From contig OZ241967.1 in the NCBI GenBank assembly GCA_965204055.1, positions 1,801,362-1,865,361 of the forward strand: a DNA stretch of 64,000 bases, written 5' to 3'. The DNA comes from Bdellovibrionales bacterium (GTDB taxonomy: Bacteria > Bdellovibrionota > Bdellovibrionia > Bdellovibrionales > UBA1609). Shown here piece by piece: positions 1,250 through 35,285 of the stretch (within the stretch, counting starts at the first letter, position 1; every line of letters begins with the position of its first letter). Below the pieces are notes generated by a model that made no database searches, was not told where the DNA came from, and saw nothing but the letters and a program-made list of their open reading frames with translations. A program made the position numbers and the translations under genes.

Positions 1250-1397
1250 TTTACCTCCTTACTTTAAAAAGACCTATTTTTTACCGATTTTATACCATAA
1301 TTTTACCTTATTGAAAAGGAGAAATAAAGTCAATTATTTTAATAACTTATCTCAAATGCTCAAATGCTCTACTGCTCTTTTCATCTCCTCCCCCTTG

Positions 1398-1461
1398 TTT
1401 GATAAAATCTCACATTCCTTCGCGCTTATTTTGATAAAATCTCGCATTCCTTCACGCTTAT
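1398..1461. repeat. 32-bp tandem duplication
   Basis: tttgataaaatctcacattccttcgcgcttat followed by tttgataaaatctcgcattccttcacgcttat. Confidence 0.85.
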
Positions 1462-1489
1462 ACTGTTAGATGTCTTTAAAATATAACAG

Positions 1490-3314: not shown

Positions 3315-4347
3315 TAACTTTAATAGTCTGTATTCTGTTTTTTACTTCCTGTATAACTGGGCGCGGAAGAGGTATGTAATGTAGTTTTTTACAAAAGTTC
3401 TGCCCTGTATTTAAGTACCAATTTAAAAACTGAACCAACGCTTTTCCTTTTTCAGAAAACATTTCCTTATACACCAATAAATAAGTGTAAGAAGACATAG
3501 GATAAACATCCACTCCTTGAGCTGAAACAAGAGAAGGAAACAAATTATTTGTTTTTTTTAGCATTTCTTGAGCAGAGGAAGCAACGGTCTGAGAGGTAGC
3601 AGAAACAAAATGTCCAGATATGTTTTGCACATCTGCCATAGATAAGTGACGATTTACTGCGTAGCTCATAGCCACATATCCTATAGCACCGGGGATTTTT
3701 TGAACCAGACCCATCACCCCTTCATTTCCTTTGCCCCCCACTCCTGTTATCCAGTTAACTGCTTTTCCTTTGCCCACTTGCTTAAGCCACTCTGGAGAAA
3801 ACTGAGAGAGATATTCTGTAAAAACCGCTGTTGTGCCACTGCCATCTGATCGATAAACCGGCACAATATTTTTATCCGGTAAAGCCACCTGAGGATTTAT
3901 TTTACGAATATCCTTATGGTTCCACTTGGTGATCTTTTTTTGATAGATACCTGCTAAAACAGGAGCTGTTAGACGAAGAGTTTTGGTTTTTAAAGAAGGA
4001 AGGTTATAACTGATAACCACAGCCCCTAAAGCTGTGGGTAAGTGTAAAATTTCTTTTTTAGATTTTTTTAGACGGTTTTTTGACATAGGGACATCGGTCG
4101 CGCCAAAATCTAAAGCCCCTGCTAAAAACTGACGAATGCCCCCCCCACTTCCAATAGAGCGATAATTGATCATAACATCAGGAGCTACTTTTCTGTATTC
4201 TAAAAACCATTTAGAATACAAAATATACGGAAAAGACGCCCCCGCACCATTTATTAACAAAGGACGGCGGACACTGGACTTTCCAGTGGCCGGCAAAGCA
4301 AAAAAGCAACCCAAAAATAAAACAAAAATAACTCTAAAGTAAAGCAA
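3286..4347 (-). CDS. pstS: Phosphate-binding protein PstS
   Basis: GAGASFPY, YRSIGSGGG, RSDGSGTT, GKGNEGV. Confidence 0.95.
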   Translation of the reverse strand: MLYFRVIFVLFLGCFFALPATGKSSVRRPLLINGAGASFPYILYSKWFLEYRKVAPDVMINYRSIGSGGGIRQFLAGALDFGATDVPMSKNRLKKSKKEILHLPTALGAVVISYNLPSLKTKTLRLTAPVLAGIYQKKITKWNHKDIRKINPQVALPDKNIVPVYRSDGSGTTAVFTEYLSQFSPEWLKQVGKGKAVNWITGVGGKGNEGVMGLVQKIPGAIGYVAMSYAVNRHLSMADVQNISGHFVSATSQTVASSAQEMLKKTNNLFPSLVSAQGVDVYPMSSYTYLLVYKEMFSEKGKALVQFLNWYLNTGQNFCKKLHYIPLPRPVIQEVKNRIQTIKVNDKDDGKKN

Positions 4348-4458
4348 AATGAAAATCCTCTTATTACTTTTAGTAACCTGCCTTTGAGGTTATAACAAAA
4401 TAAGATAAAAACTTTATTAAATTTATGTTAAAATTCCAGGCCACTTAAAGGGGAATTT

Positions 4459-5211
4459 ATGACCAAATTAAGCGTAAATGTCAATAAAATTGCCACTCTC
4501 AGAAACTCCAGAGGGAAAAATCAACCCGATCTAATAGAGGCTGTCCGAAAATTGATTCATTTCGGTGTAACAGGGATTACTGTTCATCCCCGCCCTGATG
4601 GTCGACATATTCTTTATAAAGATGTTTTACAGATTAAAAAATGCTTAAAAAAACACCAAAAAGTGGAGTTAAATGTGGAAGGTTACCCCAGCCAGAAATT
4701 TATGACTTTAATAGAGGAGGTAAAGCCTGCTCAATGCACTTTGGTTCCAGATGCTCCGTCTGATCTGACTTCTAATGCGGGTTGGAAAATTCAAAAAAAC
4801 CGGGCTTTATTAACCCACACTCTTAAAAGCTTACAAAAAAATAAAATCCGATCTTCTTTGTTTATAGATCCTTTTTCTCTGACAAAAAAAGAGGAAAAAG
4901 GATTGGTTCAGCTTAGTCCTGATAGGGCAGAGCTTTACACAGAGGCTTATGCAGACGCCTTCTTCACCCTCAAAAAAAGCACTATAACCCAAACTTATAT
5001 TTCCACTGCAAAAAAGCTAATAGCTTATGGAATAGAATTAAACGCTGGGCACGATTTAAACCTTAACAACCTGGCTTTTCTTTTAAAAAAAATTCCTGAG
5101 ATTAAAGAAGTCTCCATTGGGCATGCTTTAATTTGCGAATCCCTTTACCAGGGATTAAAAACAGTAGTGCAAAAATATTTAAAAATTTGCCAAGCCACCC
5201 GGAGCACTTAA
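4459..5211 (+). CDS. pdxJ: Pyridoxine 5'-phosphate synthase
   Basis: LSVNVNKIATLRN, GITVHPRPDGRHI, NAGHDLN, EVSIGHALI. Confidence 0.95.
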   Translation: MTKLSVNVNKIATLRNSRGKNQPDLIEAVRKLIHFGVTGITVHPRPDGRHILYKDVLQIKKCLKKHQKVELNVEGYPSQKFMTLIEEVKPAQCTLVPDAPSDLTSNAGWKIQKNRALLTHTLKSLQKNKIRSSLFIDPFSLTKKEEKGLVQLSPDRAELYTEAYADAFFTLKKSTITQTYISTAKKLIAYGIELNAGHDLNLNNLAFLLKKIPEIKEVSIGHALICESLYQGLKTVVQKYLKICQATRST

Positions 5212-19052: not shown

Positions 19053-19113
19053 ATCTCTTGACAGTAAGCTATCCCACTAATAGAGTGATATGCCAAACTC
19101 AAGAGATTTTTTT
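19053..19113 (+). promoter_or_regulatory. Structured leader hairpin + U-tract before NYN gene 1 (candidate ncRNA/attenuator)
   Basis: Outer stem atctcttga/tcaagagat, inner gc-tat-cact/agtg-ata-gc, T run, then ATG; second copy at 20352. Confidence 0.65.
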
Positions 19114-19806
19114 ATGATTAAAACTGCAATCCTTGTTGATGGTTCTTTCTTTATAAAAAGATATAGAAAACTATATAAGAAAGATAATCGTAATCCTGAA
19201 AAAGTTGCTCATTTTTTATATACTATATGCCACAAACATTTAGTAAATAAAAAACCCATAGAACATTATGAATCAGAACATCAAGACAATTTATATCGGA
19301 TTTTTTACTATGATTGTCATCCACTACAATTCAAAATTCATCACCCTATTACAAAAAAACTTATAGATTTCTCAAAAACGGAGGAATATAATTTTCGTAA
19401 AAACTTTTTTGAACAACTAAAGAAAAAACGAAAAGTAGCTCTTAGGTTAGGACAACTCACAACTTATAAAAAATGGAAGATCTCATCTGATAGTTTAAAA
19501 GTTTTGTTAAAAAAAGAGATTACTGTTGAAAGCCTTACAGAGAAAGAGGTTAGTTTAGATGTTGTTCAGAAGGGCACAGACATTAAAATAGGAATTGATA
19601 TTGCTTCTTTAGCTTTAAAAAAACAAGTTGGTAGAATTATTTTAATTTCAGGTGATAGTGATTTTGTGCCAGCGGCTAAATTGGCCAGACGAGAAGGTAT
19701 TGATTTTATATTAGATCCTTTATGGCAACCTATCAGCCCTTCATTATATGAACATATTGATGGACTGCGTTCCGTTATTAAGAAACCAGATTATAAAAAG
19801 GGCTAA
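19114..19806 (+). CDS. NYN-domain (LabA/DUF88, PIN-like) ribonuclease 1
   Basis: AILVDGSF, QKGTDIKIGIDI, ISGDSDFVP; ATG at 19114 preferred over the track start 19090, which lies inside the hairpin. Confidence 0.9.
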   Translation: MIKTAILVDGSFFIKRYRKLYKKDNRNPEKVAHFLYTICHKHLVNKKPIEHYESEHQDNLYRIFYYDCHPLQFKIHHPITKKLIDFSKTEEYNFRKNFFEQLKKKRKVALRLGQLTTYKKWKISSDSLKVLLKKEITVESLTEKEVSLDVVQKGTDIKIGIDIASLALKKQVGRIILISGDSDFVPAAKLARREGIDFILDPLWQPISPSLYEHIDGLRSVIKKPDYKKG

Positions 19807-19933
19807 ATTGTCGCTTAAAAAACCCGTTTTTAGCACCTCATAATATTAAATAGCCTATTTATGGGCTAAATTGTCGCTTAAAAAGCCAATTTTTGGACTT
19901 TCTGCTTTATTAAATTCATTGAATATGTTATAA
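19800..19933 (+). repeat. 134-bp right copy of the direct repeat; supplies the NYN stop codon and the probable ssrA promoter
   Basis: Near-identical to unit 1 plus the tail of 18757-18954. Confidence 0.9.
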
Positions 19934-19945
19934 GTAGGGAAAATC

Positions 19946-20301
19946 GGGGGCGAGTGGCTTTGACGCAGGCCATGAAGCTTCAGGAGCATACAGAGGCACA
20001 TGGGGACCTCTTTAAAAACATGTATAAAAACTAATTGGCAACTTTTTTCCAGTTGCTCTTGCCGCTTAATTTAAACAAGTGGCCGTTGACTGCCCTTTTG
20101 ACGATGAAGGGTGGAAGGCGTTGATTGAATCGTCTCGGCTTTAGACTGCTTTATCAGGGTAAAAAGCTTAAATTTACTGGTAAAAACCCGATAGATTGTG
20201 TTGGTGCCAGTTTATCGGTACTTTTTGCATCAACTAAGTATGTAGCTTGCCTGAATGTGGATGATTTGCGGACACGAGTTCGACTCTCGTCGCCTCCACC
20301 A
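19946..20301 (+). ncRNA. ssrA: tmRNA, tag peptide (A)GNFFPVALAA
   Basis: 5' GGGGGCG pairs with 3' CGCCTCC-ACCA; T-arm gagttcgactctc; internal ggc aac ttt ttt cca gtt gct ctt gcc gct taa. Confidence 0.93.
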
Positions 20302-20351: not shown

Positions 20352-20419
20352 ATCTCTTGACAGTCAAGCTATCCCACTAATAGAGTGATATGCTGAACTC
20401 AAGAGATTTTTTCCTGATT
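20352..20419 (+). repeat. Orphan second copy of the NYN-1 leader hairpin
   Basis: Near-identical to 19053-19119; start ATG ATT AA appears as CTG ATT AA and then diverges. Confidence 0.9.
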
Positions 20420-20464
20420 AAGTGTATTGGATATGTTATAAAAAATTTAAATATTTATATTATT

Positions 20465-22191: not shown

Positions 22192-22267
22192 GGGGGTGTA
22201 GCTCAGCTGGGAGAGCATCCGATTTGCATTCGGAAGGTCGCAGGTTCGATCCCTGTCACCTCCACCA
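22192..22267 (+). tRNA. tRNA-Ala(TGC)
   Basis: Cloverleaf: acceptor GGGGGTG/CACCTCC, anticodon stem tccga/tcgga with loop tttgcat, GGTTCGATCC, encoded CCA. Confidence 0.97.
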
Positions 22268-22473
22268 ATTATAAAACAATAAACAGGGAGCGAAGCGAAA
22301 GCGCGCAGAAAATCAAGATAATTTTGACCTTTAATTGTCCACGGAAAAAGCTCTAAGTTAATAAAAAACGGAATGTTAGTTTTTTAACCCTATCTTTTCT
22401 TTATTTGTTCATCCAGCCTGATTTAATCATCTCTTGCACGATTTTAAAAAAACAGGTTTGTTGAAAGAGGGAT

Positions 22474-22574
22474 TTGACCCTATTCAATAACTATTGTAAC
22501 CTGTTTAGGAACCGCCCCTGCTTATTCGGGCAGGGCGCAAGGCTGTGGCTTACGGCTACAGCCTTTGCTTTTTT
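22474..22574 (+). promoter_or_regulatory. sigma70-like promoter + GC-rich double-hairpin leader + U-tract before NYN gene 2
   Basis: TTGACC-17-TAACCT (22474-22502); hairpins cgcccctgc/gcagggcg and gcaaggctgtggc/gctacagcctttgc, then T6. Confidence 0.65.
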
Positions 22575-22586
22575 ATCAGGTGTCTC

Positions 22587-23210
22587 TTGAAAACGATTGT
22601 TTACATAGATGGATTTAATCTTTATTATGGATGTTTAAAAGGCTCCTCTTATAAATGGCTCAATTTATTGAAGTTATCCAAACTTTTATTACCAAAGCAC
22701 AATATTTCAAAGATCAAGTATTTTACCGCTAAAGTGTCGCCTCAGCCCTATGATCCGGATTGCCATAAAAGACAATACACCTATATACGCGCTCTGAAAT
22801 CTCTGGAATGTTGCGAGATTCATTATGGATTTTACCTGTCAAACATTAAAAAAGTGCCACTTGCGCAACCCATCGCCGGAAAAAAATTTACAGACATTAT
22901 TCATACTGAGGAAAAAGGCTCTGATGTGAATTTAGCCTCTCACTTATTATTGGATGCCTTTAGAGACAGATATGAAACAGCTGTAGTAATTTCAAATGAT
23001 TCAGATTTTGCCTCAACAGTTCAAATAGTGAGAGATGAATTGAAAAAAAATATAGGGATCATTTCCCCTTATAAAAGGCCGGCAAGAGCTTTGCAAAACA
23101 AAGCGACTTTTTATAAAAAAATCAGGACAGGCGTTCTTCAAGCTACCCAATTTCCGGCGATTATCACTCTTGCCAATGGAGAAACCATACACAAACCGTC
23201 TGATTGGTAA
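22587..23210 (+). CDS. NYN-domain ribonuclease 2
   Basis: VYIDGFNLYYG, EEKGSDVNLA, VISNDSDF; TTG start at 22587 with aggt RBS (the track start 22545 lies in the hairpin). Confidence 0.9.
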   Translation: MKTIVYIDGFNLYYGCLKGSSYKWLNLLKLSKLLLPKHNISKIKYFTAKVSPQPYDPDCHKRQYTYIRALKSLECCEIHYGFYLSNIKKVPLAQPIAGKKFTDIIHTEEKGSDVNLASHLLLDAFRDRYETAVVISNDSDFASTVQIVRDELKKNIGIISPYKRPARALQNKATFYKKIRTGVLQATQFPAIITLANGETIHKPSDW

Positions 23211-23333
23211 AAAACTCAAAAACACGCTGTGATTTCGCTGTGATTTATTAGGATAGAGCGGGAAACTGCAGGAAGAGCAGGGAAAAGAATAGCGTTTAAA
23301 ATGAGTGAGTCGGACGCGAACGAATGAAGTAGG

Positions 23334-23355
23334 CGATCCCTCACACCTCCACCAA
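23334..23355 (+). repeat. att-like copy of the tRNA-Ala 3' end
   Basis: cgatccctcacacctccaccaa vs tRNA 22247-22268 cgatccctgtcacctccaccaa (20/22). Confidence 0.75.
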
Positions 23356-23483
23356 CTTCGATTTAATGCGCTAAAAATAGACAAAAAAGCAGTTTTTAAG
23401 CTCTTTAAGATCAATCTTGACAGCGAACAAGTATTGTCAGACAATAGTTGTTAGTGGTGGTATCAATCGCTTGGGAAGGAGTT

Positions 23484-23684
23484 ATGAATCAACTAAAAAA
23501 ACTTAAAAGTTCTGATTGGAAATATATATCAGAAGAGAGAAAAAAAGAAGTTGAGCAGGTTTTTCAAACTCTTAGAATACCATTAACAGAGAACCTTCCT
23601 GATTATTCTGAAGGTTATAACACTCCATTTAAACAACTTTCTGTCTTAAAAAATGAAAAAATAATTTTTAGTAGCTCTGGTTAA
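23484..23684 (+). CDS. Small protein coupled to the ClpP-like protease
   Basis: aaggag RBS before ATG 23484; ends 2 nt before the next start. Confidence 0.7.
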   Translation: MNQLKKLKSSDWKYISEERKKEVEQVFQTLRIPLTENLPDYSEGYNTPFKQLSVLKNEKIIFSSSG

Positions 23685-23686
23685 TT

Positions 23687-24589
23687 ATGCCCAGCTGGAA
23701 CACAATTTTAAAAGAGATCCAAAGCGATCCAAATATAGATCCTTTTCGTAATGTAAGGCAAAAATATATTCAAAAACTGTTTGAAAAGCGTCAGAGAAAT
23801 ATCATTGTCTATTACTCTGGTTGGCTTCAAAAACCAGGTATAAGAGGGACAGAAATTAATGATAACGATAAAAATGCTTTTATGGCGGTTATTCATGGTT
23901 TAAGTCGCGATAAAGGATTAGACTTGATACTTCACACCCCAGGAGGTGAAGTTGCCGCAACAGAATCTTTGATTGATTATTTAAGAAAAATGTTTGACTC
24001 CAATATAGAGGTGTTTGTTCCTCAGATTGCTATGTCAGCAGGAACAGTGGTTGCCTGTGCTTCAAGACTTATACACATGGGAAAACAATCCAACTTAGGG
24101 CCGATTGATCCTCAAATCGGAGGACTGCCGGCTGGTGCCATACTGGACGAATTTGAACAAGCCGCAAGAGAAATTAAAAAACAACCAGAAAAAATTCCAT
24201 TATGGCAGGCTATTGTTAGTAAATATCACCCCAGTCTTATACTGTCTTGTGAAAACGCTATTAAATGGTCAAAAGAAATAGCAGAAAAATATTTAAAAAC
24301 AGGGATGTTTTCTAATGATAAAGAGGTAAATATCAAGCAAATAGTGAGTAAACTTTCAGATTATAAGCAAATGAAGACCCATTTTCGACATATCGGACTT
24401 CGTGAAGCGCAAGATATTGGGTTAAAAATTAGTCAGCTTGAAGATGATGATGATCTTCAAGATATAGTTCTTACCATTCATCATACTTATATACATACGC
24501 TCAACAGCACTCTTGCCATTAAAATTATAGAGAATCAAAAAGGCATTGGGCAGATACAAAGTTTGCCACTCCGGCCAAACACTAATTAA
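23687..24589 (+). CDS. ClpP-class serine protease (SDH_sah/S49-like)
   Basis: LILHTPGG, AMSAGT, LGPIDPQ, THFRHI. Confidence 0.85.
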   Translation: MPSWNTILKEIQSDPNIDPFRNVRQKYIQKLFEKRQRNIIVYYSGWLQKPGIRGTEINDNDKNAFMAVIHGLSRDKGLDLILHTPGGEVAATESLIDYLRKMFDSNIEVFVPQIAMSAGTVVACASRLIHMGKQSNLGPIDPQIGGLPAGAILDEFEQAAREIKKQPEKIPLWQAIVSKYHPSLILSCENAIKWSKEIAEKYLKTGMFSNDKEVNIKQIVSKLSDYKQMKTHFRHIGLREAQDIGLKISQLEDDDDLQDIVLTIHHTYIHTLNSTLAIKIIENQKGIGQIQSLPLRPNTN

Positions 24590-24631: not shown

Positions 24632-27274
24632 TTAAGGTTTTCTTTTCTCTAAGGACAAAATTCTTTTTTCTCCTTCTTTTATATATTCTGTGTGTTTGTC
24701 CCATAGAGGAATTGGAAGATTTTTTATATCGAAATTATTTTCTTCAATATATTGTTTGTATTTTTTAGATAAAAATAACCCTATAATATACAGAAAAACC
24801 TCCTGTTGAGAATGAAATCGTGTTGTTTTATTCTTCAACAATAGATGACATTTTATATTGATATTTTTTGCTGAAACAAATCTTGTTCCTGAACCTCCCG
24901 GTTTAAAATAATCTTTGGAAATAGGTTTATTTATTAAATCCACCTCAAATCTCCTTTTTCTCATACACCAACAAAGAGCTAAGTTATTATTCTTTAAATT
25001 TTCTCCCCATACTTCAAAGTGGTTTTGTGTTAACCTGTCTGACAAAATTTTTTCTGAATAAAAATATTTATTTTCATCTTTTCTGTAGCCGACTAAGCAT
25101 ATTTTTTCTTTATCAAATTTTAAACTCGCTGTTGCTTCGTTTTTGATTTTCTTTTTTAAGTCGAGGGAAAGTTTAATTTTTGGATTATCAGGATTTTTCT
25201 TTAAATCCTTTATCAAAAACTTTATTCTTTTCTTTAGTGCCTCTTTATTGGAGTCATAAACATCTTTGTCCCTGTTAGTCACAATTCCAAGAAAAGATTT
25301 TTCAAAAAGATCATTAATAGACAATCCTTCAAAAGGTGTTTCTTGGTTCAACCATTGATATCTTTTATTAGGAGTGATTACTTTAAATGGATATTGGTTT
25401 GGATTTTTATAGTTTGCTAAAAAAGTTTTTTTCTTTCCATTGTTTTCTTGATCAATAAAAGAATTATTTAGTGCTGTTAATTTATAAGATTTTTTATCTC
25501 CTTCCAGATGTTCTGATAATTTTATATACTTAATTTTTGCTTTTTTTTCAGTTCCTGACTTAACCAGAAAAACAATGGAAACCCCGGCTTGAATATCAAA
25601 TACATTGGAATCCTGCGGGTCTCCTGTTCTTATATTGCCCCCTAGATCTAAAATATAAATATGATCAAATTCTTGCTCTAAACAGTGTCTTACCCCTTTG
25701 CCACTGTCTGCATCCAAAAAAGATCGATTTACCACAAAAGATATAATACCTTGATTTTGTATTCTGTCTGTCGCCCATCTCAAAAAATAGATATATTTGT
25801 CTTGTGATAGTTTTTCTTTTTTTGACTTAATATGCCCATAAGTTTCCTTGATTCTTTGTTTCAGCTCAGGGTAATTTTTATTTGGATTGCCATCATCAAA
25901 TCTTTTCTGGTGCTGGTTGTATGGAGGATTCCCTAAAACTATCTGAATGTCTTTTTCATTTTGCTTTTTAACTCTTTTTTGATTCTCTGAAAAAGCATAA
26001 CCCTGAAAACTCATTTGACCTTTTAAAATACCAGAATTTTGCAGACTGTCCATAAGAACAAGGTTTGGAAAATGCTCATTATTGTTTGTCAATTTCTCAT
26101 AAGTGTATTCAATACTTAAATTCGCTACATAGTAAGGCAAAACAGAAATTTCATTGGCATGGATTTCATTCATATACTTATATTTGAGTGTCCGTTTGTC
26201 TGACTGATGGTAAATATATTCAATAAGTTCTGTGACAAAAGTTCCTGTTCCCGTCGCCGGATCCAGTATATGAACATTTTTATCTTTCAACTCTTTGTTA
26301 AAATGCTTTTTTAAAACCTGATTTGTGGATTGAACTATAAACTTAACAATCTCATTTGGTGTATATATAATACCCAGTCTGTCCGCTACTTTTTGATTGT
26401 AGGAATTATAAAAATCCTGATATATATTTTTAAGAAACAGTTGTCGCTCATTTAGGTCAATTATATTGGATCCATAGCTTGTTATAGGAGCCATATATGG
26501 CTTGATTTTTCTTAGTATTGCTCTCTTTTTTGCTCCAAGAAATTTCTTCTCTATGTCACTTATAGCGGCTGATATGTTGTTGGTTTTGTGATACTGTTGC
26601 TCATCAAAGACTTTTAAAAAAAATTGCTCTGTCAAAATATGTTGAATAAGCCAATCTTCTACATTCTCTCTTTTAAAATAAGGGTTAATAAACTTCTGAC
26701 ATTCTGAAACAAGATCATTAGTTTTTTTTATATATTCTTGATTTTCATTCATTTTCACTAACTCTTGTCTGATCTCTTTTGCAAGTGCCGGTAAGTTTTT
26801 ATTAAATTGTTTTTGAGCACTATAAAAACTTCTTTTCTCAGGAGATTCATAATTGAAAAATAGAGCTAAAAGCTCACTTAAAGGTTCTGGATTATCCCAC
26901 ATTCCTGATATTTCTTTTACAGGACGCTTGTCTTGATAAAGAATACAAGAATCTGAATTTTCAAAAATGGTGTTTTTTATCGGATAATTGTTGTTAATTT
27001 TTGTATTTATCGCTTTTTTTAAGTTTGTGGCAGGAGATTTAGCTTCATAATATCCATGAACTGTATAAAGATTTTTTATTGTAGCATCCGGTTTTTTGTT
27101 GTTGTTCAGTCTATCCTCAGCAATGACCCATAGGTTTTTATGAGATCCCGCTCTATTCAAAAGCTCTATAAAAACAGGTCTTAACGATTCTTCCGTGTTA
27201 TTGCTACTGCGTATTCGTCGTATTCTGGGCTTTAAATCAGAAATGTATTGGCTGATAATTTGTGTATTAAACAT
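24632..27274 (-). CDS. Type IIG/ISP-like single-chain restriction-modification enzyme (N6-adenine MTase)
   Basis: N-terminal KPD...YYEAK nuclease motif, ILDPATGTGTF, VLGNPPY, C-terminal TRD-like region. Confidence 0.85.
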   Translation of the reverse strand: MFNTQIISQYISDLKPRIRRIRSSNNTEESLRPVFIELLNRAGSHKNLWVIAEDRLNNNKKPDATIKNLYTVHGYYEAKSPATNLKKAINTKINNNYPIKNTIFENSDSCILYQDKRPVKEISGMWDNPEPLSELLALFFNYESPEKRSFYSAQKQFNKNLPALAKEIRQELVKMNENQEYIKKTNDLVSECQKFINPYFKRENVEDWLIQHILTEQFFLKVFDEQQYHKTNNISAAISDIEKKFLGAKKRAILRKIKPYMAPITSYGSNIIDLNERQLFLKNIYQDFYNSYNQKVADRLGIIYTPNEIVKFIVQSTNQVLKKHFNKELKDKNVHILDPATGTGTFVTELIEYIYHQSDKRTLKYKYMNEIHANEISVLPYYVANLSIEYTYEKLTNNNEHFPNLVLMDSLQNSGILKGQMSFQGYAFSENQKRVKKQNEKDIQIVLGNPPYNQHQKRFDDGNPNKNYPELKQRIKETYGHIKSKKEKLSQDKYIYFLRWATDRIQNQGIISFVVNRSFLDADSGKGVRHCLEQEFDHIYILDLGGNIRTGDPQDSNVFDIQAGVSIVFLVKSGTEKKAKIKYIKLSEHLEGDKKSYKLTALNNSFIDQENNGKKKTFLANYKNPNQYPFKVITPNKRYQWLNQETPFEGLSINDLFEKSFLGIVTNRDKDVYDSNKEALKKRIKFLIKDLKKNPDNPKIKLSLDLKKKIKNEATASLKFDKEKICLVGYRKDENKYFYSEKILSDRLTQNHFEVWGENLKNNNLALCWCMRKRRFEVDLINKPISKDYFKPGGSGTRFVSAKNINIKCHLLLKNKTTRFHSQQEVFLYIIGLFLSKKYKQYIEENNFDIKNLPIPLWDKHTEYIKEGEKRILSLEKRKP

Positions 27275-27462
27275 GGCCCACCTTCCAGAAGAAAATTGTT
27301 AAAGACAATTCGCTTATCGGCAGGCAAAGAGGAAACCTTAATTGAAAGCCCCGTCATAAGTATTGTTTTTTTGGAAAATCAGTCCATAAGCCAAGGTGAA
27401 AGCTTAAAAAAAGCTCATAATTTCTGGAGCCTTATAGAATTAACTAAATACAGAGAAAGCCA

Positions 27463-27666
27463 TTAAAAAGGAGTTTTAGCTGGGATGGTGTTTTGGTTTT
27501 GATCACCTTCTTTAACAAATAAACATTGTGTTTTTAACAAATACTCTACCACTTCTGAACCATTAGCGACAATAATGTCAAATTCTCTCTTTTGAAGATT
27601 ACCGTCAGGTTTTTTCCTTTGAGCATCTGATATTGCATTGCGCTTAATGGAAGTCGGAAGACCTTT
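27463..27666 (-). pseudogene. Possible PD-(D/E)XK nuclease gene fragment
   Basis: Start-less open frame containing KREFDIIVANGSEVV. Confidence 0.35.
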
Positions 27667-27672
27667 TTAAAT

Positions 27673-28806
27673 TCAAAATATTGTTTCTCCTTTTTCAACA
27701 GAATCAACCAATTCTTTTAATTTCCTACAATCTTCTTTTAAGTATTCTTTAAAAAAGTCAATACTTTTAGAAGAGTTAATTTCAATTTTATCTGGGCTAA
27801 CCTTTGTTAAACTGACTATTTCATTCATAGATTTAGACCTCTGAAACTGCTCAATTCTTTTTATAAAAACCTTCTTTTCTTTTTTATCTGGATCAACAAT
27901 AAGCATTTTCTTATTCAAATCAGAACTTAAATTTTGTATTAAAATATTGTTAATATATCTATCTTGAAAACTATATCCAACTGCGATAAATAAATTTGTT
28001 TTTTTTAAAGCTTCACTAAAAGCCCCTAAAAGTGATAAAAAAGGATCGTAAGATTGGATTTTTGAGCCAGAACCAAAAATAATTAAAGGCTTCTGGTTAA
28101 CTCTTCCTTGTTTAATTGTTTCCTCTTCATCATCAAAATACCAGTCAATAGAACCATGAAGTTTATAAAATTTTATTTTTTGAGGACTTTCCGGATCATT
28201 AAAGTCACCGATCCACTTGTTTTGAGAAAATCCAGTATCTACAAGATGCTCATTTTCTGTGTTAAAGGTTTTTTCAAGTATTATATCGTAATTAAGTGAG
28301 AATATTCGCAAATCAAATTTCTCATCAGACTGAATGAGTTTTTGAAATGGATTTAAAAGACATTGAGCTTTTTTATTATCGAATTTAGTCCATTTATTTA
28401 TAAGCTGATCATGTATAAAGTTATAAAAATCTTGAAAAACATTTTTGTCTTTAGACTCCCACAGAGTGATTTTATTATTCCAATTTCCTACTAAAGGAGG
28501 AGGAACAACATATTCTCTATCTATTATTTGTTGCAATACTAACACAAAATCCTCAATATTTGTCACTTCAGACACTTTTATTTCTGTATCTTTTAAACCA
28601 TATTGATATAGAAGGCTTTGCATAATAAAATTGTATATGTCAAGAAAATGGTTCTTGTTTGGCCAAGGAATTTCATAATCAAGTATAGATTTTTTTAGAT
28701 CGCACAACATTTCCTTCGATAAAAAACACCCGGCGTCTTTTGAAGACCCGGCACCAAAAAGAAACACTGTCTTTTCAAATAAACTTTTTAAACTCATAAA
28801 AACCAC
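27673..28806 (-). CDS. SIR2-like (SIR2_2) putative NADase, Argonaute-associated
   Basis: FLFGAGSS, FSLNYD, KLHGSIDW, AVGYSFQDRYIN; start overlaps the pAgo stop. Confidence 0.9.
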   Translation of the reverse strand: MVFMSLKSLFEKTVFLFGAGSSKDAGCFLSKEMLCDLKKSILDYEIPWPNKNHFLDIYNFIMQSLLYQYGLKDTEIKVSEVTNIEDFVLVLQQIIDREYVVPPPLVGNWNNKITLWESKDKNVFQDFYNFIHDQLINKWTKFDNKKAQCLLNPFQKLIQSDEKFDLRIFSLNYDIILEKTFNTENEHLVDTGFSQNKWIGDFNDPESPQKIKFYKLHGSIDWYFDDEEETIKQGRVNQKPLIIFGSGSKIQSYDPFLSLLGAFSEALKKTNLFIAVGYSFQDRYINNILIQNLSSDLNKKMLIVDPDKKEKKVFIKRIEQFQRSKSMNEIVSLTKVSPDKIEINSSKSIDFFKEYLKEDCRKLKELVDSVEKGETIF

Positions 28807-30827
28807 AATGTTTGTTTTGCTGTATTTGAATCAGGCAATTTGCTGTCACTAAAAGATGGTGTCATTTTGGCTATCTTTTCAGAGTATAAAACTGTTACAG
28901 GTTTCCCTTTTTGTTTTACACTAACCCAATACATTCTTGAAAATTGATAAATCTGATCTATAAGTAGTTTAATATCTCCTCTTAAAAGCTTTTCTTGACT
29001 CATTTTTGATATTTTTATTTGAATTGGAAAAGGGAAATCTCTAATTTTTGCTCCGGTTGTATTGGAATATCTCTCATTATTACACAAAAGATACTGCCTT
29101 TTATTATTAAGGATAACACAAGTTCCACTGACTGGCATTTTTCCATTATAAGAAGTATCAAATGGAATGTAATCCTTGTTTTCCGTAATATGTAAAACAA
29201 TATAAGGGATTTTAAGATTTAATTGACTTAGAGTTTCTTCTATTATTTTACTCTCTTTTTTATTCATTGTTTTGTAATAATGGATAATGATTCTTTTAAA
29301 ATTATTTATATCCTCTTTTGATATGCTCAATATGATCTTTTTAAGAAATTCTGAAACTTCATCAATAGAATTTGTTTTTGAGGAATCGAAGTGAACAAAA
29401 GTACCATCGTTTTTAAATGTCATGGTTGTGCCAATGTAAGTATTCTGGCTTGTGTTAAATGCTCCTACACCGATAATTAAATCATTTTCTATAGGGCGAC
29501 TTAATCTCCAAGGTATACCTCCCAGCTTGGCTAAAATAGCAACTCCAATATTTGGCAAAGAGTAATTAAAGTTTTGTTCGATTATATTACCTCTATAAAT
29601 AACTTGAGAAGTGATATTTTTTTTTAAAAATAACTCCTTCAATTTATAATAGATTCCTACCTTATTAGGATCAAGATCATCTTTTTTGATTCTGGAAATA
29701 TAAATCCCCAGATATTTTATATTTGAATCAAAACTTAACGATTCTAACTTCTGTTTAATTTCTGATAAAGGATTTTCCTCTCTAAATTTGATTGTTTTTT
29801 CCTTATCAATATCTATATTTAATTCAACAAATCGAGAAAGACCAGGAAAGCCTTTAATGCCTCTTGTAAAGTAAGCATATAGTTTATTTGCAATATCTTT
29901 GTCATCCTCGTGAAATATAAAAAAGAACCTATACTGCCCTTGTTCAACAGGCCGATATGGACCATACTCTTTAATTCCATAATAAGGGCTAAAATAAGTT
30001 CTGTTCTTACCAAATATTAATAAGTTAGAATCTTTTTTTGCGTATATTATTTGCTCATTACTAATTGTCTGAAAGCCCGATGTAAAAATGGATATTTTTT
30101 TATTGTCATTTATACTAATATCCTGATCTTTAATATATTTCTCATAGAAATCAGAAACTTCATTATAAAACTGAGAGTATTTATTCGGTGGTTTAGAGAA
30201 CTGCTTTAGCCAATTCATTTGTATCCGAAATTTATTACTTACATACGCTTTTGTTTTATCAGATTTTTTTTCTTCTGTAGTCAACCTATCCAAAGGCTTA
30301 ACGGTTTTTCCCACGAGAGCGTTTTTGATAAATCTATGATAATTTTCATAAGAACTTAGAGATTTTTTTGTGATTTCACTTTTCCCCATATAGGAAATAC
30401 TGAGATTCCAAGAGTTCTGCTTATTACAAGCATATTGTTGTTTGGGATGGATAATACGGACTGTAAATTTTTTATATATTATTAAATCAGGTATATTGGA
30501 CTGGTTTTGTTCTTCAAGCAAAATAAGCTCATCTATAAAATCATTATAAACAATTAGCCTTTTTTCTAAAAAATAATCGCGAAAGGATTTTTTTAAAATA
30601 TTTTTAACGACTTTAAAATTCTCTTTATCAATTTCTATTGGTATTGAACCATCAAACTCTTCCAGATCCCAACACACTTTCTTATTAGAATCTTTAAACT
30701 TATCAGGGTCAAGTAGTTTTTTTGGAATAGTGTTATGGCCTTCTTGAGTATCTTCTGAGTAATAAATTTTTACTTTCTCAAAAGATAATTCAAAAGGTAT
30801 TAGGTTAATTGTTAAATTCAGATTCAT
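28794..30827 (-). CDS. Prokaryotic Argonaute, long-B type (catalytically inactive)
   Basis: 677 aa; MID YYKLK...TSQVI...LAKLGGIPW; PIWI DLIIGVG (G at the catalytic D), RIIIHYY, FSRMYW..V...KPVTVLYSEKIA. Confidence 0.9.
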   Translation of the reverse strand: MNLNLTINLIPFELSFEKVKIYYSEDTQEGHNTIPKKLLDPDKFKDSNKKVCWDLEEFDGSIPIEIDKENFKVVKNILKKSFRDYFLEKRLIVYNDFIDELILLEEQNQSNIPDLIIYKKFTVRIIHPKQQYACNKQNSWNLSISYMGKSEITKKSLSSYENYHRFIKNALVGKTVKPLDRLTTEEKKSDKTKAYVSNKFRIQMNWLKQFSKPPNKYSQFYNEVSDFYEKYIKDQDISINDNKKISIFTSGFQTISNEQIIYAKKDSNLLIFGKNRTYFSPYYGIKEYGPYRPVEQGQYRFFFIFHEDDKDIANKLYAYFTRGIKGFPGLSRFVELNIDIDKEKTIKFREENPLSEIKQKLESLSFDSNIKYLGIYISRIKKDDLDPNKVGIYYKLKELFLKKNITSQVIYRGNIIEQNFNYSLPNIGVAILAKLGGIPWRLSRPIENDLIIGVGAFNTSQNTYIGTTMTFKNDGTFVHFDSSKTNSIDEVSEFLKKIILSISKEDINNFKRIIIHYYKTMNKKESKIIEETLSQLNLKIPYIVLHITENKDYIPFDTSYNGKMPVSGTCVILNNKRQYLLCNNERYSNTTGAKIRDFPFPIQIKISKMSQEKLLRGDIKLLIDQIYQFSRMYWVSVKQKGKPVTVLYSEKIAKMTPSFSDSKLPDSNTAKQTLWFL

Positions 30828-30860
30828 AGTTTTGTCTCTTTATTTTCTATTTTAATTTTT

Positions 30861-33506
30861 TTATTGGCTTGTTCTAAAAATGTTGTTTAAAGCCTTCCGC
30901 CACTCATCTTGTAGAATGAGATCAAAAGTCATTTTCTGATCTTGGATTTCAATGGTTCCGGCGTCTATGGATTTTTGAGAGTATTCCGTAAAAAGATCAA
31001 AGAGCTTTTTCTTGTATTTCGTGTCAGGATTCCCCATAAGGTGTTGCCCCTTTGTCTCCAAAATGGAAAAAGAGGCATTGCCGTTTTTAGATGACTTAAC
31101 ACAAATCAAAAAATCAGGATATATCTTGTGTTTTTGCCAGCCCTGTAAATACCAGTCCTGTCTCTCTATGATCCTGTGCCACCACTTAATGGCTGAATCC
31201 TCGTCTAAATACCAAGCCACCCTTTTTTCCAGATCATTGAACTTAAATTCGTTCTTGTAAATATCCTCAAAAAGAGATAGTTGCAAATCTCCGTTACTTT
31301 TTCTTCTCAATAATGTATCCTCCCCTGATACAGAGAGATTTAAAGTTTTCGCCATTTCCCAATTCAAATCCGAATCTCCCGCGCTTACAAGCTTAAATAT
31401 AATCTCATTGTTTTTTAGTTTCTTTCTGAAAATCTTTTCTGTTTTTTGGCTTATTTGACTTTGAAGATCATTTCTTAAACAATCCAGAATATAAAACCGA
31501 TTAGAATAAATTTTTTCCTTCCCGTGCTTTCTCTTTAAAGAGGCCAGAGCTTTATCCACTGTGACGCTTATATTCCAAGGGTTGGGAATAATATCGGAAA
31601 GCCTTTGGCATATAAAGCCAAAATCCTTATTATAATCTTCAGAAACTTTTTCCTCTTCGTTTTCACAAAACGAGTGGATCAATTTCATTTGCTCTTTTAT
31701 ATCAACCTGTGTATGAGATATATCAGGGGGGTTTTCATACAGGGTAAAATCCCTCCTCAATCTTAAGTTTTGCCAGTCAATGGGAAAAAGCAGATCTTCC
31801 TCATAACTCAGTTCTTTAAAGTTTTTTCTGTCCCTATGAAGAACTTTAGGTAAAAATATCTTTAAGCCCCTAAACGGCTTTCTTCTTTTTATATTGACTT
31901 GCCGGATAGTTTCTTTCCCTGAACCCAAGGCTTTTATTTCTCCCGCCAAACCATCCATTCCCTCGTTTTCCAACCCCTTTCGGATTCCCTCTACGGCTTG
32001 GTTTGTGTCCTGATCCATACAAACTATGTATGACTGATTTAAAGCCTCTATGCCGGTTTGCCTTGTTTCCGGCTGTCTTAAAACCCGCCCTATCATTTGC
32101 TCAATGGCCACAGGGGCCTTTGTCTTGGATAGAATTGTCAGGATATAAGCAAAGGGACAATCCCAGCCTTCCTTTAAAGCCTCCTTGGTGATTATATATC
32201 GAACTCTGGAATATTCAGAGAGCAAATCTTCATCTTTCAGCTCATCTTGGAAAGCAGACTTAACCCTGATTTCCAATGGATTCACATTAAAGTTTTTTAT
32301 AAGATATTCCCGAACATCCTCCGCGTGAATGAACTTTTTTTCCCTCTGATCTTTCCCCGTTCTTTCAACTCTTATCAGCTGGACAGGGCGAATATAGCGA
32401 CTCTCGATTGTCTGTAATTTTTCCGCAGATTTTGAAAGGCTTTGCAAGGTTTCGTAACCTTTAGCCAGAGCTTTTTTCCAGTCTTTGCTTTTTAAATTAT
32501 AAATATTAATGGGGAGCTTTATCATCTCCTCTTTTTTCAACTCTCCGCCGGATACAGACACCAAAACATTGCTCTCATGAGATTTTTTATTAGGAGTAGC
32601 GGAAAGCTCTAAAATAAACCGGGGGTTAAAATCCATTAAGGCGTTCTTGGCTTTTTCCGTATAAGCCCTGTGGCCTTCATCAATCACAATCAAAGGCTGA
32701 ACAAGTTTTAAGACATTTCCAAGACTCTGCTTTATGGATATATTTTTTGAACCGGGAAATAAAGGCTCTCCAATGTCGAGGTTAGGACATATATCAAGCA
32801 GTTTTTGATTTTCATAATGAGCATTGATTTCCGGGAAGAAATAAGGAAATTTCCCAGAATTTCTGAATATCCTTAAGGTTTCTTTTGACTGTCTTCCGGC
32901 GGATTGAAGCATCAACAACATCACACATAAAAAATTTTCTGTGTCTTGAGGATGAAAGCTGTCGGTTTTTTGAAGGATTTTAACTTTTCCGGCTGAGGCA
33001 CGATCCAAGGTTTGCCTGTAAAGGCTTTCTCGATTAGTAAGAGCTTTCAGGGTTTGTTTATAAATAGAATCACTTGGAACTACCCACAAAACAAAACCGG
33101 TATTCCTCTCAAAAAAACGAGTATTGATTCGCTCTATTCCTGCCGTCGCAAGTAGTGTTTTGCCACCACCTGTGGGAACTTTAAAGCATATATTGGGAAC
33201 AGGGCGACCCATGCCACTGAATCGGCTTTTATAGGACGCAAGCGTTTGCTCTTGGTTTTTAGAGATAAACAGTCTCTCTTTTTTATCGATGACTCTTCTG
33301 GAAATAAGAGGCAAAAGCCTTTGTTCGTTTAATTCATCCCAAGCTCTTTTGCAAAAGTTAAAATCTCCTGAAGTCCAGGATGCAGACCGTTTTCTGCTTT
33401 TTCGTGATTCCGCCAAAATTAAAGTATCCTGTCTTTTTTCCTTAAGAACCTTAAGGAAAACGGAAAGCCTGTCAAGGACAGCTGACTGATAGTCTTTTAG
33501 TTCCAT
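30861..33506 (-). CDS. res: Type III restriction endonuclease subunit Res
   Basis: PTGGGKT, DEGH, ALKEGWDCP, QMIGRVLR, C-terminal YPDF...ILETKG. Confidence 0.9.
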   Translation of the reverse strand: MELKDYQSAVLDRLSVFLKVLKEKRQDTLILAESRKSRKRSASWTSGDFNFCKRAWDELNEQRLLPLISRRVIDKKERLFISKNQEQTLASYKSRFSGMGRPVPNICFKVPTGGGKTLLATAGIERINTRFFERNTGFVLWVVPSDSIYKQTLKALTNRESLYRQTLDRASAGKVKILQKTDSFHPQDTENFLCVMLLMLQSAGRQSKETLRIFRNSGKFPYFFPEINAHYENQKLLDICPNLDIGEPLFPGSKNISIKQSLGNVLKLVQPLIVIDEGHRAYTEKAKNALMDFNPRFILELSATPNKKSHESNVLVSVSGGELKKEEMIKLPINIYNLKSKDWKKALAKGYETLQSLSKSAEKLQTIESRYIRPVQLIRVERTGKDQREKKFIHAEDVREYLIKNFNVNPLEIRVKSAFQDELKDEDLLSEYSRVRYIITKEALKEGWDCPFAYILTILSKTKAPVAIEQMIGRVLRQPETRQTGIEALNQSYIVCMDQDTNQAVEGIRKGLENEGMDGLAGEIKALGSGKETIRQVNIKRRKPFRGLKIFLPKVLHRDRKNFKELSYEEDLLFPIDWQNLRLRRDFTLYENPPDISHTQVDIKEQMKLIHSFCENEEEKVSEDYNKDFGFICQRLSDIIPNPWNISVTVDKALASLKRKHGKEKIYSNRFYILDCLRNDLQSQISQKTEKIFRKKLKNNEIIFKLVSAGDSDLNWEMAKTLNLSVSGEDTLLRRKSNGDLQLSLFEDIYKNEFKFNDLEKRVAWYLDEDSAIKWWHRIIERQDWYLQGWQKHKIYPDFLICVKSSKNGNASFSILETKGQHLMGNPDTKYKKKLFDLFTEYSQKSIDAGTIEIQDQKMTFDLILQDEWRKALNNIFRTSQ

Positions 33507-33566
33507 TCAAAGCTCCTGATTTTTTTAAAAATCCCAACAGAAGGAAAATAGCTGTTTTTTCACTTA

Positions 33567-35285
33567 TCAAACTCCCATAATTTTGTGAATATGAAAAGGA
33601 AGTTGGCAAAAGTGAATGCCATATTTTTTCTTAAGGTTTTTTTGATTGATATAGCTTGCCGGAGCAAACACCAAACTGATCTTGTTTGATTTTTTATTGA
33701 TTTTTTTTATTGTCTCTGCAAGATCCAAGTGCAGGGCGCATTCTTTTCCGTTCAGAAAATCCAAGTCAGGCTTATACACAAGATGAAAATTATAATTTTC
33801 CGTCTCACCAACCAACCAAGCCGGATTAGCTTTTGGAATAGTGTCCAGGTTTCGTCCCGTTGCTGTATAAAAAACATATCTGGCCAGCTGTTTGTAGTCC
33901 GGGAGATCTTTTCCTCTCAGCATATTTTCAATATTGATTTCCTCTCCCAAAGAGCAATAAGTGAAGGAACCGCCTAAGCCTTTCTTTAGTTTTTCATCCT
34001 TGGATTTTGGAACACCCTTAATTACACGACGAACCCGCTCCGCAGTGATTTTATCCGCGTAATCCTCACACTCAATAAGGATGAACTTGCGATGGCCTCC
34101 GTCCTCTTTGTTTAAGTCAAGAACCGCTTGAGCTGTTGTGCCCGAACCAGCAAAAGAGTCCAAGATAATAGAGTTTTTATCATTGTAGGTAACCGCCTGT
34201 ACAAGTTGTTTAATAAGACCGCTTGGTTTAGGATTTGTAAAAATCTGTTTGCTGAAAATGTTTATCATTTCTTTTGTTGCATCTTCATTTGTAGGGGTTT
34301 TATAATGGTTAAGAAAAGATAAAAGATTTTTCATTTTTTTTATTTCTCCGCCCTTTCTAATATGATTGGGCCGGAAAGGTATTTTACTTATGCTGATTTT
34401 AGCTCCTTCCAAAAGATATGAATCCAGTGTCTTTTGAGAATAGCCCCATTCCCCTTTAAGGCGAAACTCAGAGAGATTTGTTCCGTTTTTTATAATCAGT
34501 TTGTCCATAAGATGTGTCTTTATTTCCCCTTCTGACATATCCTGAGCCTCTATTTTTTGATCCTCACACAAAAACTGAACCGAACCTTTTGGAAATTTCA
34601 ACACAGATTCTTTATTTCCTGCCCGGTTAAGAGGATATTTCTTGCCTTCTGTTGTTTTCTCCAAAGAAAAGGGAAAAGAATATTCCTTATTTTTCAAATA
34701 ACAAACAATAAAATCAGTAACCACTCCAACATTTTTATGTAAAAAAGAGGGCTTTTTCTTTTTCTCCCATATAAACTGAGTAACATAATTTTCTTCTCCA
34801 AAAATTTCCTCCATAATGGCCATAAGCCGAAACTGCTCATTTTCATCAATGCTGACAAAGATCACCCCGTCATCGGAAAGTAGTTCTTTTAATAATTGCA
34901 ACCGTGGCCACATCATGCAGAGCCACTTGTCATGTCTTTCTAAGTCATCGGTCCCGATGCCGTTTTGTTTCAGCCATTCCTTTATTATGGGGCTGTTCAC
35001 TTTATCGTTATATTTCCAACCCTCGTTTCCAGTGTTATAGGGCGGATCAATGTAAATACATTTGATTTTCCCCGAATACCTGGGCAAAAGAGCTTTCAGG
35101 GCGTGAAGATTATCTCCATGAATAATTAAATTGTCATCCAAGTTGGGTGCGCGCCTTTTCTTGCCAGGCACTTCTCGTCCAGTGGGAGGGAGAGATTTTT
35201 TTGCAGACACTTTAAGCACTCGAAAAGGAACTCCTAAATGATGTGAATAGATGACAGATTTTCCCTTAAAATCCAAAAAAGGCAT
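33567..35285 (-). CDS. mod: Type III DNA methyltransferase Mod
   Basis: GDNLHALK, IYIDPPY, DSFAGSGTT. Confidence 0.92.
   Translation of the reverse strand: MPFLDFKGKSVIYSHHLGVPFRVLKVSAKKSLPPTGREVPGKKRRAPNLDDNLIIHGDNLHALKALLPRYSGKIKCIYIDPPYNTGNEGWKYNDKVNSPIIKEWLKQNGIGTDDLERHDKWLCMMWPRLQLLKELLSDDGVIFVSIDENEQFRLMAIMEEIFGEENYVTQFIWEKKKKPSFLHKNVGVVTDFIVCYLKNKEYSFPFSLEKTTEGKKYPLNRAGNKESVLKFPKGSVQFLCEDQKIEAQDMSEGEIKTHLMDKLIIKNGTNLSEFRLKGEWGYSQKTLDSYLLEGAKISISKIPFRPNHIRKGGEIKKMKNLLSFLNHYKTPTNEDATKEMINIFSKQIFTNPKPSGLIKQLVQAVTYNDKNSIILDSFAGSGTTAQAVLDLNKEDGGHRKFILIECEDYADKITAERVRRVIKGVPKSKDEKLKKGLGGSFTYCSLGEEINIENMLRGKDLPDYKQLARYVFYTATGRNLDTIPKANPAWLVGETENYNFHLVYKPDLDFLNGKECALHLDLAETIKKINKKSNKISLVFAPASYINQKNLKKKYGIHFCQLPFHIHKIMGV

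Follow-up and report, generated by a model that had tools for sequence, protein, structure and literature searches.

A tRNA-Ala islet of a Bdellovibrionales bacterium as a probable mosaic of an RNA-NYN nuclease module, the stump of an integrative element and pieces of a tRNA-linked repeat

What does a lone nuclease gene represent when it lies between a tRNA gene and a copy of that tRNA's 3' end: a cassette that moves as it stands, or the residue of something larger? The question is raised by positions 22192-23355 of a 64,000-nucleotide (nt) stretch (the window) from a Bdellovibrionales bacterium (assembly GCA_965204055.1, contig OZ241967.1; the genome is G000 below), and all coordinates given here are window positions unless a genome or locus label accompanies them. 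At one end stands tRNA-Ala(UGC), the sole tRNA gene in the window, and at the other CGATCCCTCACACCTCCACCAA (23334-23355), which is identical to the tRNA-Ala 3' end (its last 22 nt plus one flanking base) at 20 of 22 positions; the single credible gene between them encodes an NYN-domain protein. A first-pass annotation, made from the sequence alone, read this islet as one of a class of tiny integrase-less cassettes of an RNase and an RNA, bounded by attachment (att) sites and gathering at the ends of tRNA and transfer-messenger RNA (tmRNA) genes. The mobile origin and the pairing of RNase and RNA have stood up to the analysis reported here, but the nature of the repeat, the integrase-less class and the preference for tRNA genes have not. 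We consider the islet to be, rather probably, a mosaic of three parts: an expression module consisting of a small RNA gene and the nuclease gene, the stump of the vehicle that brought them, and pieces of a tRNA-linked-repeat unit resident at the site. Its features are as follows.

22192-22267, forward strand: tRNA-Ala(UGC), the islet anchor (ARAGORN; Rfam RF00005, 67.7 bits)
22285-22325, forward strand: possible remnant of the middle part of the tRNA-linked-repeat unit (columns ~45-88; local alignment)
22474-22502, forward strand: small-RNA promoter, with -35 box TTGACC (22474-22479), 17-nt spacer and -10 box TAACCT (22497-22502)
22512-22576, forward strand: two-hairpin RNA, with hairpin 1 (22514-22536), hairpin 2, the intrinsic terminator (22539-22565), and U-run (22569-22574)
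22587-23210, forward strand: NYN nuclease gene of HEC-09 type, 207 amino acids (aa), TTG start (Pfam; PADLOC HEC-09)
23211-23300, forward strand: first ~90 nt of a family A right (attR-side) arm, with many copies in sister genomes
23301-23355, forward strand: 3' domain of the tRNA-linked-repeat unit, matched by model R1 and ending in the tRNA-Ala 3'-end copy at 23334-23355

The expression module is recognised by the linkage of its two components. Homologues of the NYN gene were collected at 80 loci from many phyla, 78 of which have both flanks available and are evaluable, and matches to R2, a covariance model of the two-hairpin RNA built from 50 copies, adjoin the NYN gene in all 78; the linkage of RNA to gene is obligate. 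The RNA lies in tandem in 65 of these loci, on the same strand and 6-80 nt upstream of the gene, further upstream in two, divergent in one and convergent in ten. Convergent copies occupy the opposite strand directly after the stop codon, occur mostly in Actinomycetota, and several have a recognisable promoter of their own. A regular expression for the motif CCCCCUG..UUCG..CAGGG-YGC-GAGGCCGCC-GNRA-GGCGGCCUC-UGCUUUUU finds it upstream of the gene in 60 of the 80 loci, and in an independent collection the RNA is present in 15/15 loci at 45% identity or more, while homologues at 41% or less are mostly devoid of it. The proposal of an RNase plus RNA cassette is hence borne out, and beyond what had been suggested.

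The RNA is also conserved as a structure. In its alignment 97% of the cells are paired and 15 of 16 pairs show double changes, a degree of pairing and covariation reached in none of 500 shuffles and not closely approached in slid registers. Compensatory changes occur in both hairpins within the genus, as also across phyla, and within the genus conservation runs from hairpin 1 exactly to the stop codon. The covariation and conservation on which the earlier reading had been staked are, in short, strong. The window copy matches R2 at 53.5 bits (E 2.9e-11) and has a fold energy of -39.4 kcal/mol (z-score -3.6); the two GC-rich hairpins and the T6 run that had been described are present, hairpin 2 with its T-run being listed as terminator-like or as an intrinsic terminator. 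The promoter, previously called textbook, deserves that word only in part: both boxes and the 17-nt spacer exist, and TTGACC sits at a position conserved in homologous loci, a TTGAC box lying 39-42 nt before the C-run in 53/88 RNA copies (3.9% of random 52-mers), but the -10 box agrees with TATAAT at just 3 of 6 positions, and a consensus promoter scan did not list the site. No Rfam 15 family matches the two-hairpin RNA at gathering or E-value threshold, and a full-text literature search returned no description of its pairing with NYN genes.

As a rule there is one two-hairpin unit per gene, with no tandem repeats and with two copies in two loci. G000 holds a second RNA-NYN pair (78680-79378 of the genome) and an orphan RNA (G000:C1:1914706-1914767; 40.3 bits) with a good promoter (TATAAT) and no NYN gene downstream. 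That the RNA might be a high-copy repeat was considered and rejected, since no genome has more than two copies. A separate arrangement is seen in G006 (locus L007/L110, G006:C1:1540737-1544435), where promoter and RNA are duplicated ~580 nt past the NYN gene, before a gene for a multiubiquitin-domain protein (PF14452), and where a divergent second NYN paralogue likewise has an R2 match upstream.

Because ten loci carry the RNA downstream on the opposite strand, the two-hairpin element is an RNA gene and not only a cis leader. The opposing view, that the hairpins are solely a cis-acting 5' leader, whether an attenuator or a stem-loop target for autoregulation, and that there is no trans-acting RNA, draws on the same-strand position of the RNA in 65 of 78 loci, where expression of the gene needs read-through of the terminator, and on the habits of related enzymes: NYN and PIN-like RNases, Regnase-1 among them, cleave stem-loops in their own mRNA. 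We nevertheless think it unlikely. A 5' leader cannot work in the ten copies that follow the stop codon convergently, several with a recognisable promoter of their own, in the divergent copy or in the orphans, and these copies speak against a pure cis-attenuator. Furthermore, no alternative antiterminator pairing was seen, though it was not rigorously looked for, and hairpin 1, being small and in most copies capped by a UUCG-type loop, offers no obvious ligand pocket.

Most likely, by analogy with known systems, the RNA is a trans-acting, type III-like partner of the nuclease. A sigma-70-type promoter would drive a two-hairpin RNA of ~65 nt with the second hairpin as intrinsic terminator, so that most transcripts would end as this RNA, which should hence be abundant, and in the tandem layout the nuclease would be made only from transcripts that read through the terminator. 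Acting in trans on the nuclease as inhibitor, decoy or preferred substrate, the RNA would be bound or cleaved by the NYN RNase and would restrain it, much like a type III RNA antitoxin, and the pair would act as defence or addiction cargo of mobile islets.

The protein itself belongs to a HEC-09-type family of several thousand homologues, with ~50% identity across phyla and a steady length of ~207 aa. Its gene likely starts at TTG 22587 (MKTIVYIDGFN, 207 aa), as homologues begin MKT.VYIDGFN; this start is preceded by AGGTG at 22578-22582 and comes 13 nt after the U-run of the RNA. The other candidate, GTG 22545, was rejected, given that it falls inside hairpin 2 and that homologues start at the equivalent of TTG 22587. 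The protein matches Pfam PF01936 (47.5 bits where the cut-off is 24.2; E 3.6e-12; positions 1-139 of the 145-position profile) and, over its full length, the PADLOC model for HEC-09 (PDLC04163; E 2.7e-46, residues 2-207 aligned to positions 3-202 of the 203-position model). Residues D8, N11, E109, D113, D138 and D140 are invariant in an alignment of 20 homologues. Its AlphaFold2 model (pLDDT 90.8) predicts a PIN-like alpha/beta fold in which the acidic metal-binding residues are conserved, and its best Foldseek matches are VPA0982 (2qip, E 3.5e-9) and the MARF1 NYN domains 5yaa and 6fdl; a sequence search of the PDB with the protein gave no match. Since the catalytic residues are invariant and the modelled fold is NYN, the nuclease looks active. 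The gene is frameshifted in G011 and in the L152 locus described below, and only eight codons are left of it in G008 and of another copy in G011, a turnover typical of costly genes. Relics of the module accordingly include RNA with the first eight NYN codons (L102 in G008, L109 in G011) and RNA alone (L107 in G010); one RNA plus eight-codon relic is followed by an insert resembling a miniature inverted-repeat transposable element, with TATATAGAT as target duplication.

HEC-09 is a candidate defence gene in PADLOC (Payne et al., bioRxiv 10.1101/2024.01.29.577857), and the islet gene resembles it in its full-length model match, in its NYN/MARF1-like fold with conserved acidic residues, and in its surroundings of defence genes. 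It differs in not being embedded in an Hma system and in standing beside a conserved small RNA gene, HEC-09 being described in the accessible part of that preprint as a protein alone, with no mention of an RNA partner. With type III toxin-antitoxin (TA) systems (ToxIN, CptIN, TenpIN) the module shares the order promoter, structured RNA, intrinsic terminator and RNase gene, as well as location on mobile DNA or in defence islands and quick turnover. It departs from them in a nuclease fold that is NYN and not ToxN-like, and in the position of the RNA, which keeps the tandem order in the window and in 65/78 loci but is convergent in 10/78 and divergent in one. If the obligate small-RNA partner proves true, it would change how the HEC-09 family, a widespread candidate defence gene, is cloned and assayed, and would add a new nuclease fold to the systems with RNA antitoxins.

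How the module came to lie at tRNA-Ala is suggested by the sequence that follows it. Directly after the NYN stop codon begins a ~90-nt segment (23211-23300) of a repeat that we call family A, of which sister genomes hold up to ten copies. Full copies of ~175 nt open with two GCTGTGATT repeats, of which two of the same type are found within 23225-23246 in the window and are putative integrase-binding sites, and their last 13-17 nt are identical to a tRNA 3' end; the tRNAs concerned are Val, Met, Glu, Asp, Ile and Ser, and the matching tRNA gene is often kilobases off. This layout is that of the attR arm of a tRNA-targeting integrative element. In the window the arm is cut after ~90 of its ~175 nt, and the attR core is gone. 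A family A arm also closes a 3.6-kb tRNA-Asp islet in G003 (locus L151, G003:C1:62000-78000, positions 1335-5074), which contains DUF4145 and AbiEi/AbiEii genes and no integrase, its arm ending in the tRNA-Asp 3' end.

A twin of the window islet was reached through the 90%-identity protein cluster of the window NYN. Locus L152, on a 2.2-Mb contig of another organism, only distantly related, has in order tRNA-Ala, two GCTGTGATT repeats, an integrase pseudogene, the NYN gene and a complete family A arm ending in CCCGTCACCTCCACCA. The element measures 1,386 nt in all and is bounded by proper att sites, attL and attR, the attR being formed by the arm plus a copy of the tRNA-Ala end. Its pseudogene, on the opposite strand, is a frameshifted, N-terminally truncated tyrosine integrase that reads LGHTSSRMTERYA, matches the C-terminus of PF00589 (E 8.6e-6) and spans residues 237-384 of a 403-aa homologue. 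From NYN through the arm, L152 is 95.8% identical to window positions 22562-23300 over 740 nt, while the proteins flanking it are only 33-50% identical to their best G000 matches. The disparity between these figures argues for recent horizontal transfer, and, as judged from these sequences, indicates that the NYN-plus-arm segment moved horizontally and recently, with both copies at tRNA-Ala. The islet is in this respect a dated example of horizontal transfer that ties the module to very small tRNA-targeting integrative elements, and the earlier idea of a mobile element directed at the tRNA-Ala 3' end is upheld by it. The identity between window and L152 stops exactly at 23300, where the 3' domain of the tRNA-linked-repeat unit begins, and the boundary recurs in a contig of run X5, which comes from an unrelated sequencing study.

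Intact relatives of the L152 integrase, 57-78% identical to the remnant, are encoded 5-15 times per genome in G011, G013, G014, G016, G022 and G073; those inspected abut tRNA genes, most with GCTGTGATT between. No tyrosine integrase of this family was found in 22268-23355, elsewhere in the window or in G000, whose only two PF00589 genes are distant and probably XerC and XerD. In the genomes to which both searches extended, arm copies occur together with integrases in G011, G013 and G014, and G005, G010 and G000 have no such integrase and at most one truncated arm copy, that of the window. The first-pass annotation had suggested a search for a tRNA-Ala-targeting integrase elsewhere; the family is represented by a pseudogene at the tRNA-Ala of L152 and by intact genes at tRNAs in sister genomes, with none in G000. 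Like other tRNA islets built by tyrosine integrases, that of the window has a tRNA 3' end at one side and an arm with repeated putative integrase-binding sites, and its sister copy L152 has attL, attR, an integrase remnant and defence-type cargo; unlike them, the window copy lacks integrase and attR and retains half an arm, and L152 comes to only 1.4 kb.

The 20/22 copy has a different source. A genus search with 23205-23365 identified 23300-23334 (AATGAGTGAGTCGGACGCGAACGAATGAAGTAGGC) as a dispersed motif, each examined copy of which follows a tRNA gene (Leu, Gln, Trp or Asn) on the same strand at a distance of 100-400 nt, and in sister genomes the 35-nt motif is followed by the 3' end of that very tRNA, not by the Ala end. 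The full unit, of ~160 nt, opens with the tRNA 3' end in inverted orientation, continues in a conserved multi-helix core and closes with a direct copy, and sometimes forms tandem arrays; units end in a copy of their own tRNA's 3' end in the window (20/22) and at Leu, Gln, Trp, Asn and Ser genes. A consensus fold of nine aligned units has compensatory changes in 18/43 pairs. R1, the covariance model of the unit, matches the window at 23268-23351 (29.7 bits, E 6.7e-7; posterior probabilities are high across the aligned 3' domain) and matches 17 places in G000, several of them beside tRNAs that carry end copies. In that genome 10 of the 36 tRNA and tmRNA genes listed by ARAGORN have a direct or inverted copy of their 3' end within 4 kb downstream. 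Rfam, including its rtT family, has no match to the unit at gathering or E-value threshold.

The allele expected before any insertion is approached most closely in G016, which belongs to another genus of the same family and has an intact Ala-specific unit (R1, 112.9 bits) right after tRNA-Ala. The pairing of tRNA-Ala with the upstream gene ORF192 is kept across genus and order, and the flank 3' of tRNA-Ala differs in 10/10 relatives examined, among which no clean empty site was found. Taken with the R1 match, the G016 unit places the 20/22 repeat in the repeat unit and not, as had been thought, among the att sites of the element. Repeats of tRNA ends can thus mimic att sites, a warning for island finders that use tRNA-end direct repeats. 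The E. coli tRNA-linked repeats (tyrT distal repeats, rtT, RrA/B/F), whose 3'-terminal 18-19 bp are identical to the 3' end of the upstream tRNA and whose function is unknown (PMC8144298), are similar in lying downstream of a tRNA, repeating ~20 nt of it at their 3' end and forming tandem arrays. The units described here differ in opening with an inverted tRNA-end copy and in their conserved multi-helix core, and have no sequence or model similarity to Rfam rtT; the likeness is one of layout only. Among other units of G000, four tandem copies of 167 nt at tRNA-Ile (C1:1460410) each reproduce the part of the tRNA that begins at the anticodon loop, tRNA-Gln (895043) is followed by 2.5 units of 179 nt, and several unit-like copies flank tRNA-Gly(GCC) on both sides (1549361-1550266). 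If transcribed, the unit would form a minihelix-like stem ending in NCCA.

A piece of the same unit may also survive on the left. Positions 22285-22325 contain GCAGAAAATCA without mismatch as well as a degenerate version of P3, a hairpin of the unit. Aligned to three intact units, they give scores that 1, 7 and 28 shuffles in 500 attain; R1 does not detect this segment. Unit-like sequence flanks the insert: columns ~45-88 precede it and 112-167 follow it, the 23 nt that separate them in the unit being absent. This is what one would expect had the NYN segment entered a pre-existing tRNA-Ala unit directly, by illegitimate recombination or at a preferred landing site, with no integrase step. We hold such a direct insertion to be quite unlikely, seeing that its left unit piece is weakly supported, that the insert includes the arm of an integrative element, and that, of the 17 units in G000, no other one holds an insert. 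The twin at L152, moreover, occupies tRNA-Ala with proper att sites, and an arm-bearing twin at the same tRNA makes an independent chance arrival there unlikely.

The reading of the islet as an integrase-less cassette of RNase and RNA, with the tRNA end as attL and the 20/22 copy as attR, belonging to a class that gathers at tRNA and tmRNA ends and is moved in trans, fares worse and has in our estimation little likelihood. Several observations fit it: the direct repeat is real, neither window nor G000 encodes a relevant integrase, the tRNA-Asp islet of G003 shows that small islets without one exist in the genus, and the window arm retains putative integrase-binding repeats. Against these, the 22-nt repeat is part of a unit whose copy of the tRNA starts at the T-loop, the attR of the element itself has just 13-17 nt of tRNA and is missing here along with the core of an arm that stops at 90 of ~175 nt, and L152 keeps an integrase pseudogene. 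With intact integrases numbering 5-15 in sister genomes, the window copy is one that has lost its own, not a member of a class without integrases. Nor is the NYN family enriched at tRNAs, as had been supposed. Around the 80 homologues there are five tRNAs in ~720 kb, and four of the 80 loci have a tRNA within 1 kb, as against ~2.7 expected by our own estimate from typical tRNA density; an independent metagenome set of 31 loci has one tRNA in 126 kb. A candidate for a second tRNA-bounded NYN islet, L046 (Dehalococcoidia), has a 13/14 copy of a tRNA-Gly end 150 nt past its NYN gene, inside a neighbouring coding region and with flanks syntenic with L033. Lastly, that the 20/22 repeat arose by chance in ordinary intergenic DNA with one gene, for which nothing speaks beyond its short length, is already refuted by its place in a motif matching R1, by the lack of any further match at three or fewer mismatches in the window where shuffles expect zero, and by our binomial estimate of ~1.6e-5 for two or fewer mismatches in 22 over 128 kb.

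The mosaic that we prefer would most likely have arisen as follows. The vehicle would be a small integrative element that enters tRNA 3' ends by means of a tyrosine integrase, and such an element, with integrase, RNA, NYN gene and arm in that order, would have integrated at a tRNA-Ala already followed by one or more units, as in G016. Deletions would then have removed integrase and left arm, and fused arm position ~90 to unit position ~112, taking away the true attR. Whether it came about by integration and deletion or by direct insertion into the unit, the islet is now immobile: integrase, left arm and true attR are lost and G000 encodes no such integrase, which leaves it stranded.

Several results weigh against this account. 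An intact element with integrase, RNA, NYN gene and arm was not found, a metagenome scan giving nothing above 54% identity, and L152 itself is without the two-hairpin RNA. In four sister genomes the NYN copies are found away from tRNA genes and have no arm sequence beside them; such islets are therefore not the only carriers of the module. The left unit remnant, weakly supported, is the weakest part of the islet's anatomy, and the order of events is for that reason a reconstruction. As for the RNA, a search of RNA-seq data encountered the stretch in no run and only in assembled contigs of unstated library type, and the RNA consists of one two-hairpin unit, whereas known type III antitoxins are defined by an array of tandem repeats. 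In the accessible part of the HEC-09 preprint, moreover, the gene, of which one representative was assayed, gave no protection in E. coli against any phage tested (bioRxiv 10.1101/2024.01.29.577857). With these points counted, the combined explanation, of a mosaic islet that integrated and then suffered deletions and of an RNA that acts as trans partner, still appears to us the better bet. The wider proposition is more tentative, somewhat short of an even prospect: that HEC-09-type NYN and its ~65-nt RNA constitute a widespread, undescribed two-component module, a single-unit analogue of type III TA and abortive infection systems with a different nuclease fold, in which the RNA would restrain or direct the RNase in trans and which would pass among distantly related bacteria on tRNA-targeting mini-islands of ~1.4-3 kb. 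What gives the locus lasting interest is the pairing of RNA and NYN gene, together with its transport by very small tRNA-targeting islets.

A second NYN gene in the window, NYN-1 (19090-19806), lies 5' of the tmRNA gene (19946-20301; Rfam), and the first-pass annotation had seen the same logic at work there. NYN-1 is of a different NYN subfamily (28% identical across 43 residues), and its leader is, as had been said, unrelated to that of the islet gene, an R2 search yielding no match at NYN-1. Both NYN genes do neighbour RNAs ending in CCTCCACCA, tmRNA and tRNA-Ala, but NYN-1 is not at the tmRNA 3' end. Since tmRNA mimics the acceptor stem of tRNA-Ala, a common CCTCCACCA end is expected, and the shared CCUCCACCA is merely tRNA-Ala identity; with NYN-1 upstream of the tmRNA and its leader different, the proposed parallel falls away. 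No repeat units of the kind found in the islet were found near other NYN modules. The NYN-1 region has repeats of its own: a 56-nt direct repeat, 93% identical (19066-19121 and 20366-20421), brackets NYN-1 and the tmRNA gene and holds a TTGACA-N17-TAGAGT promoter-like site, and a second, 91% identical (19800-19831 and 19863-19894), lies between them.

The islet heads a ~12-kb defence island. Between it and ileS, the island (24632-35285) contains a type IIG/ISP-like restriction-modification (R-M) enzyme, a SIR2 protein (Aga_SIR2 model) with a 677-aa prokaryotic Argonaute (PADLOC, E 1.3e-165), and the Res and Mod genes of a type III R-M system. In a relative (locus L020, G004:C1:30200-37500) tRNA-Ala is inverted with respect to the conserved upstream ORF192, an orientation that points to a rearrangement whose breakpoint lay at the tRNA. 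Immediately past the islet, at 23448-24589, a 78-aa open reading frame is paired with the gene for a ClpP-like SDH-type serine protease (PF01972, E 1.4e-22); the pair, which has no PADLOC match, recurs at other loci in G003 and G016 with 75-78% nucleotide identity and may be another mobile two-gene module.

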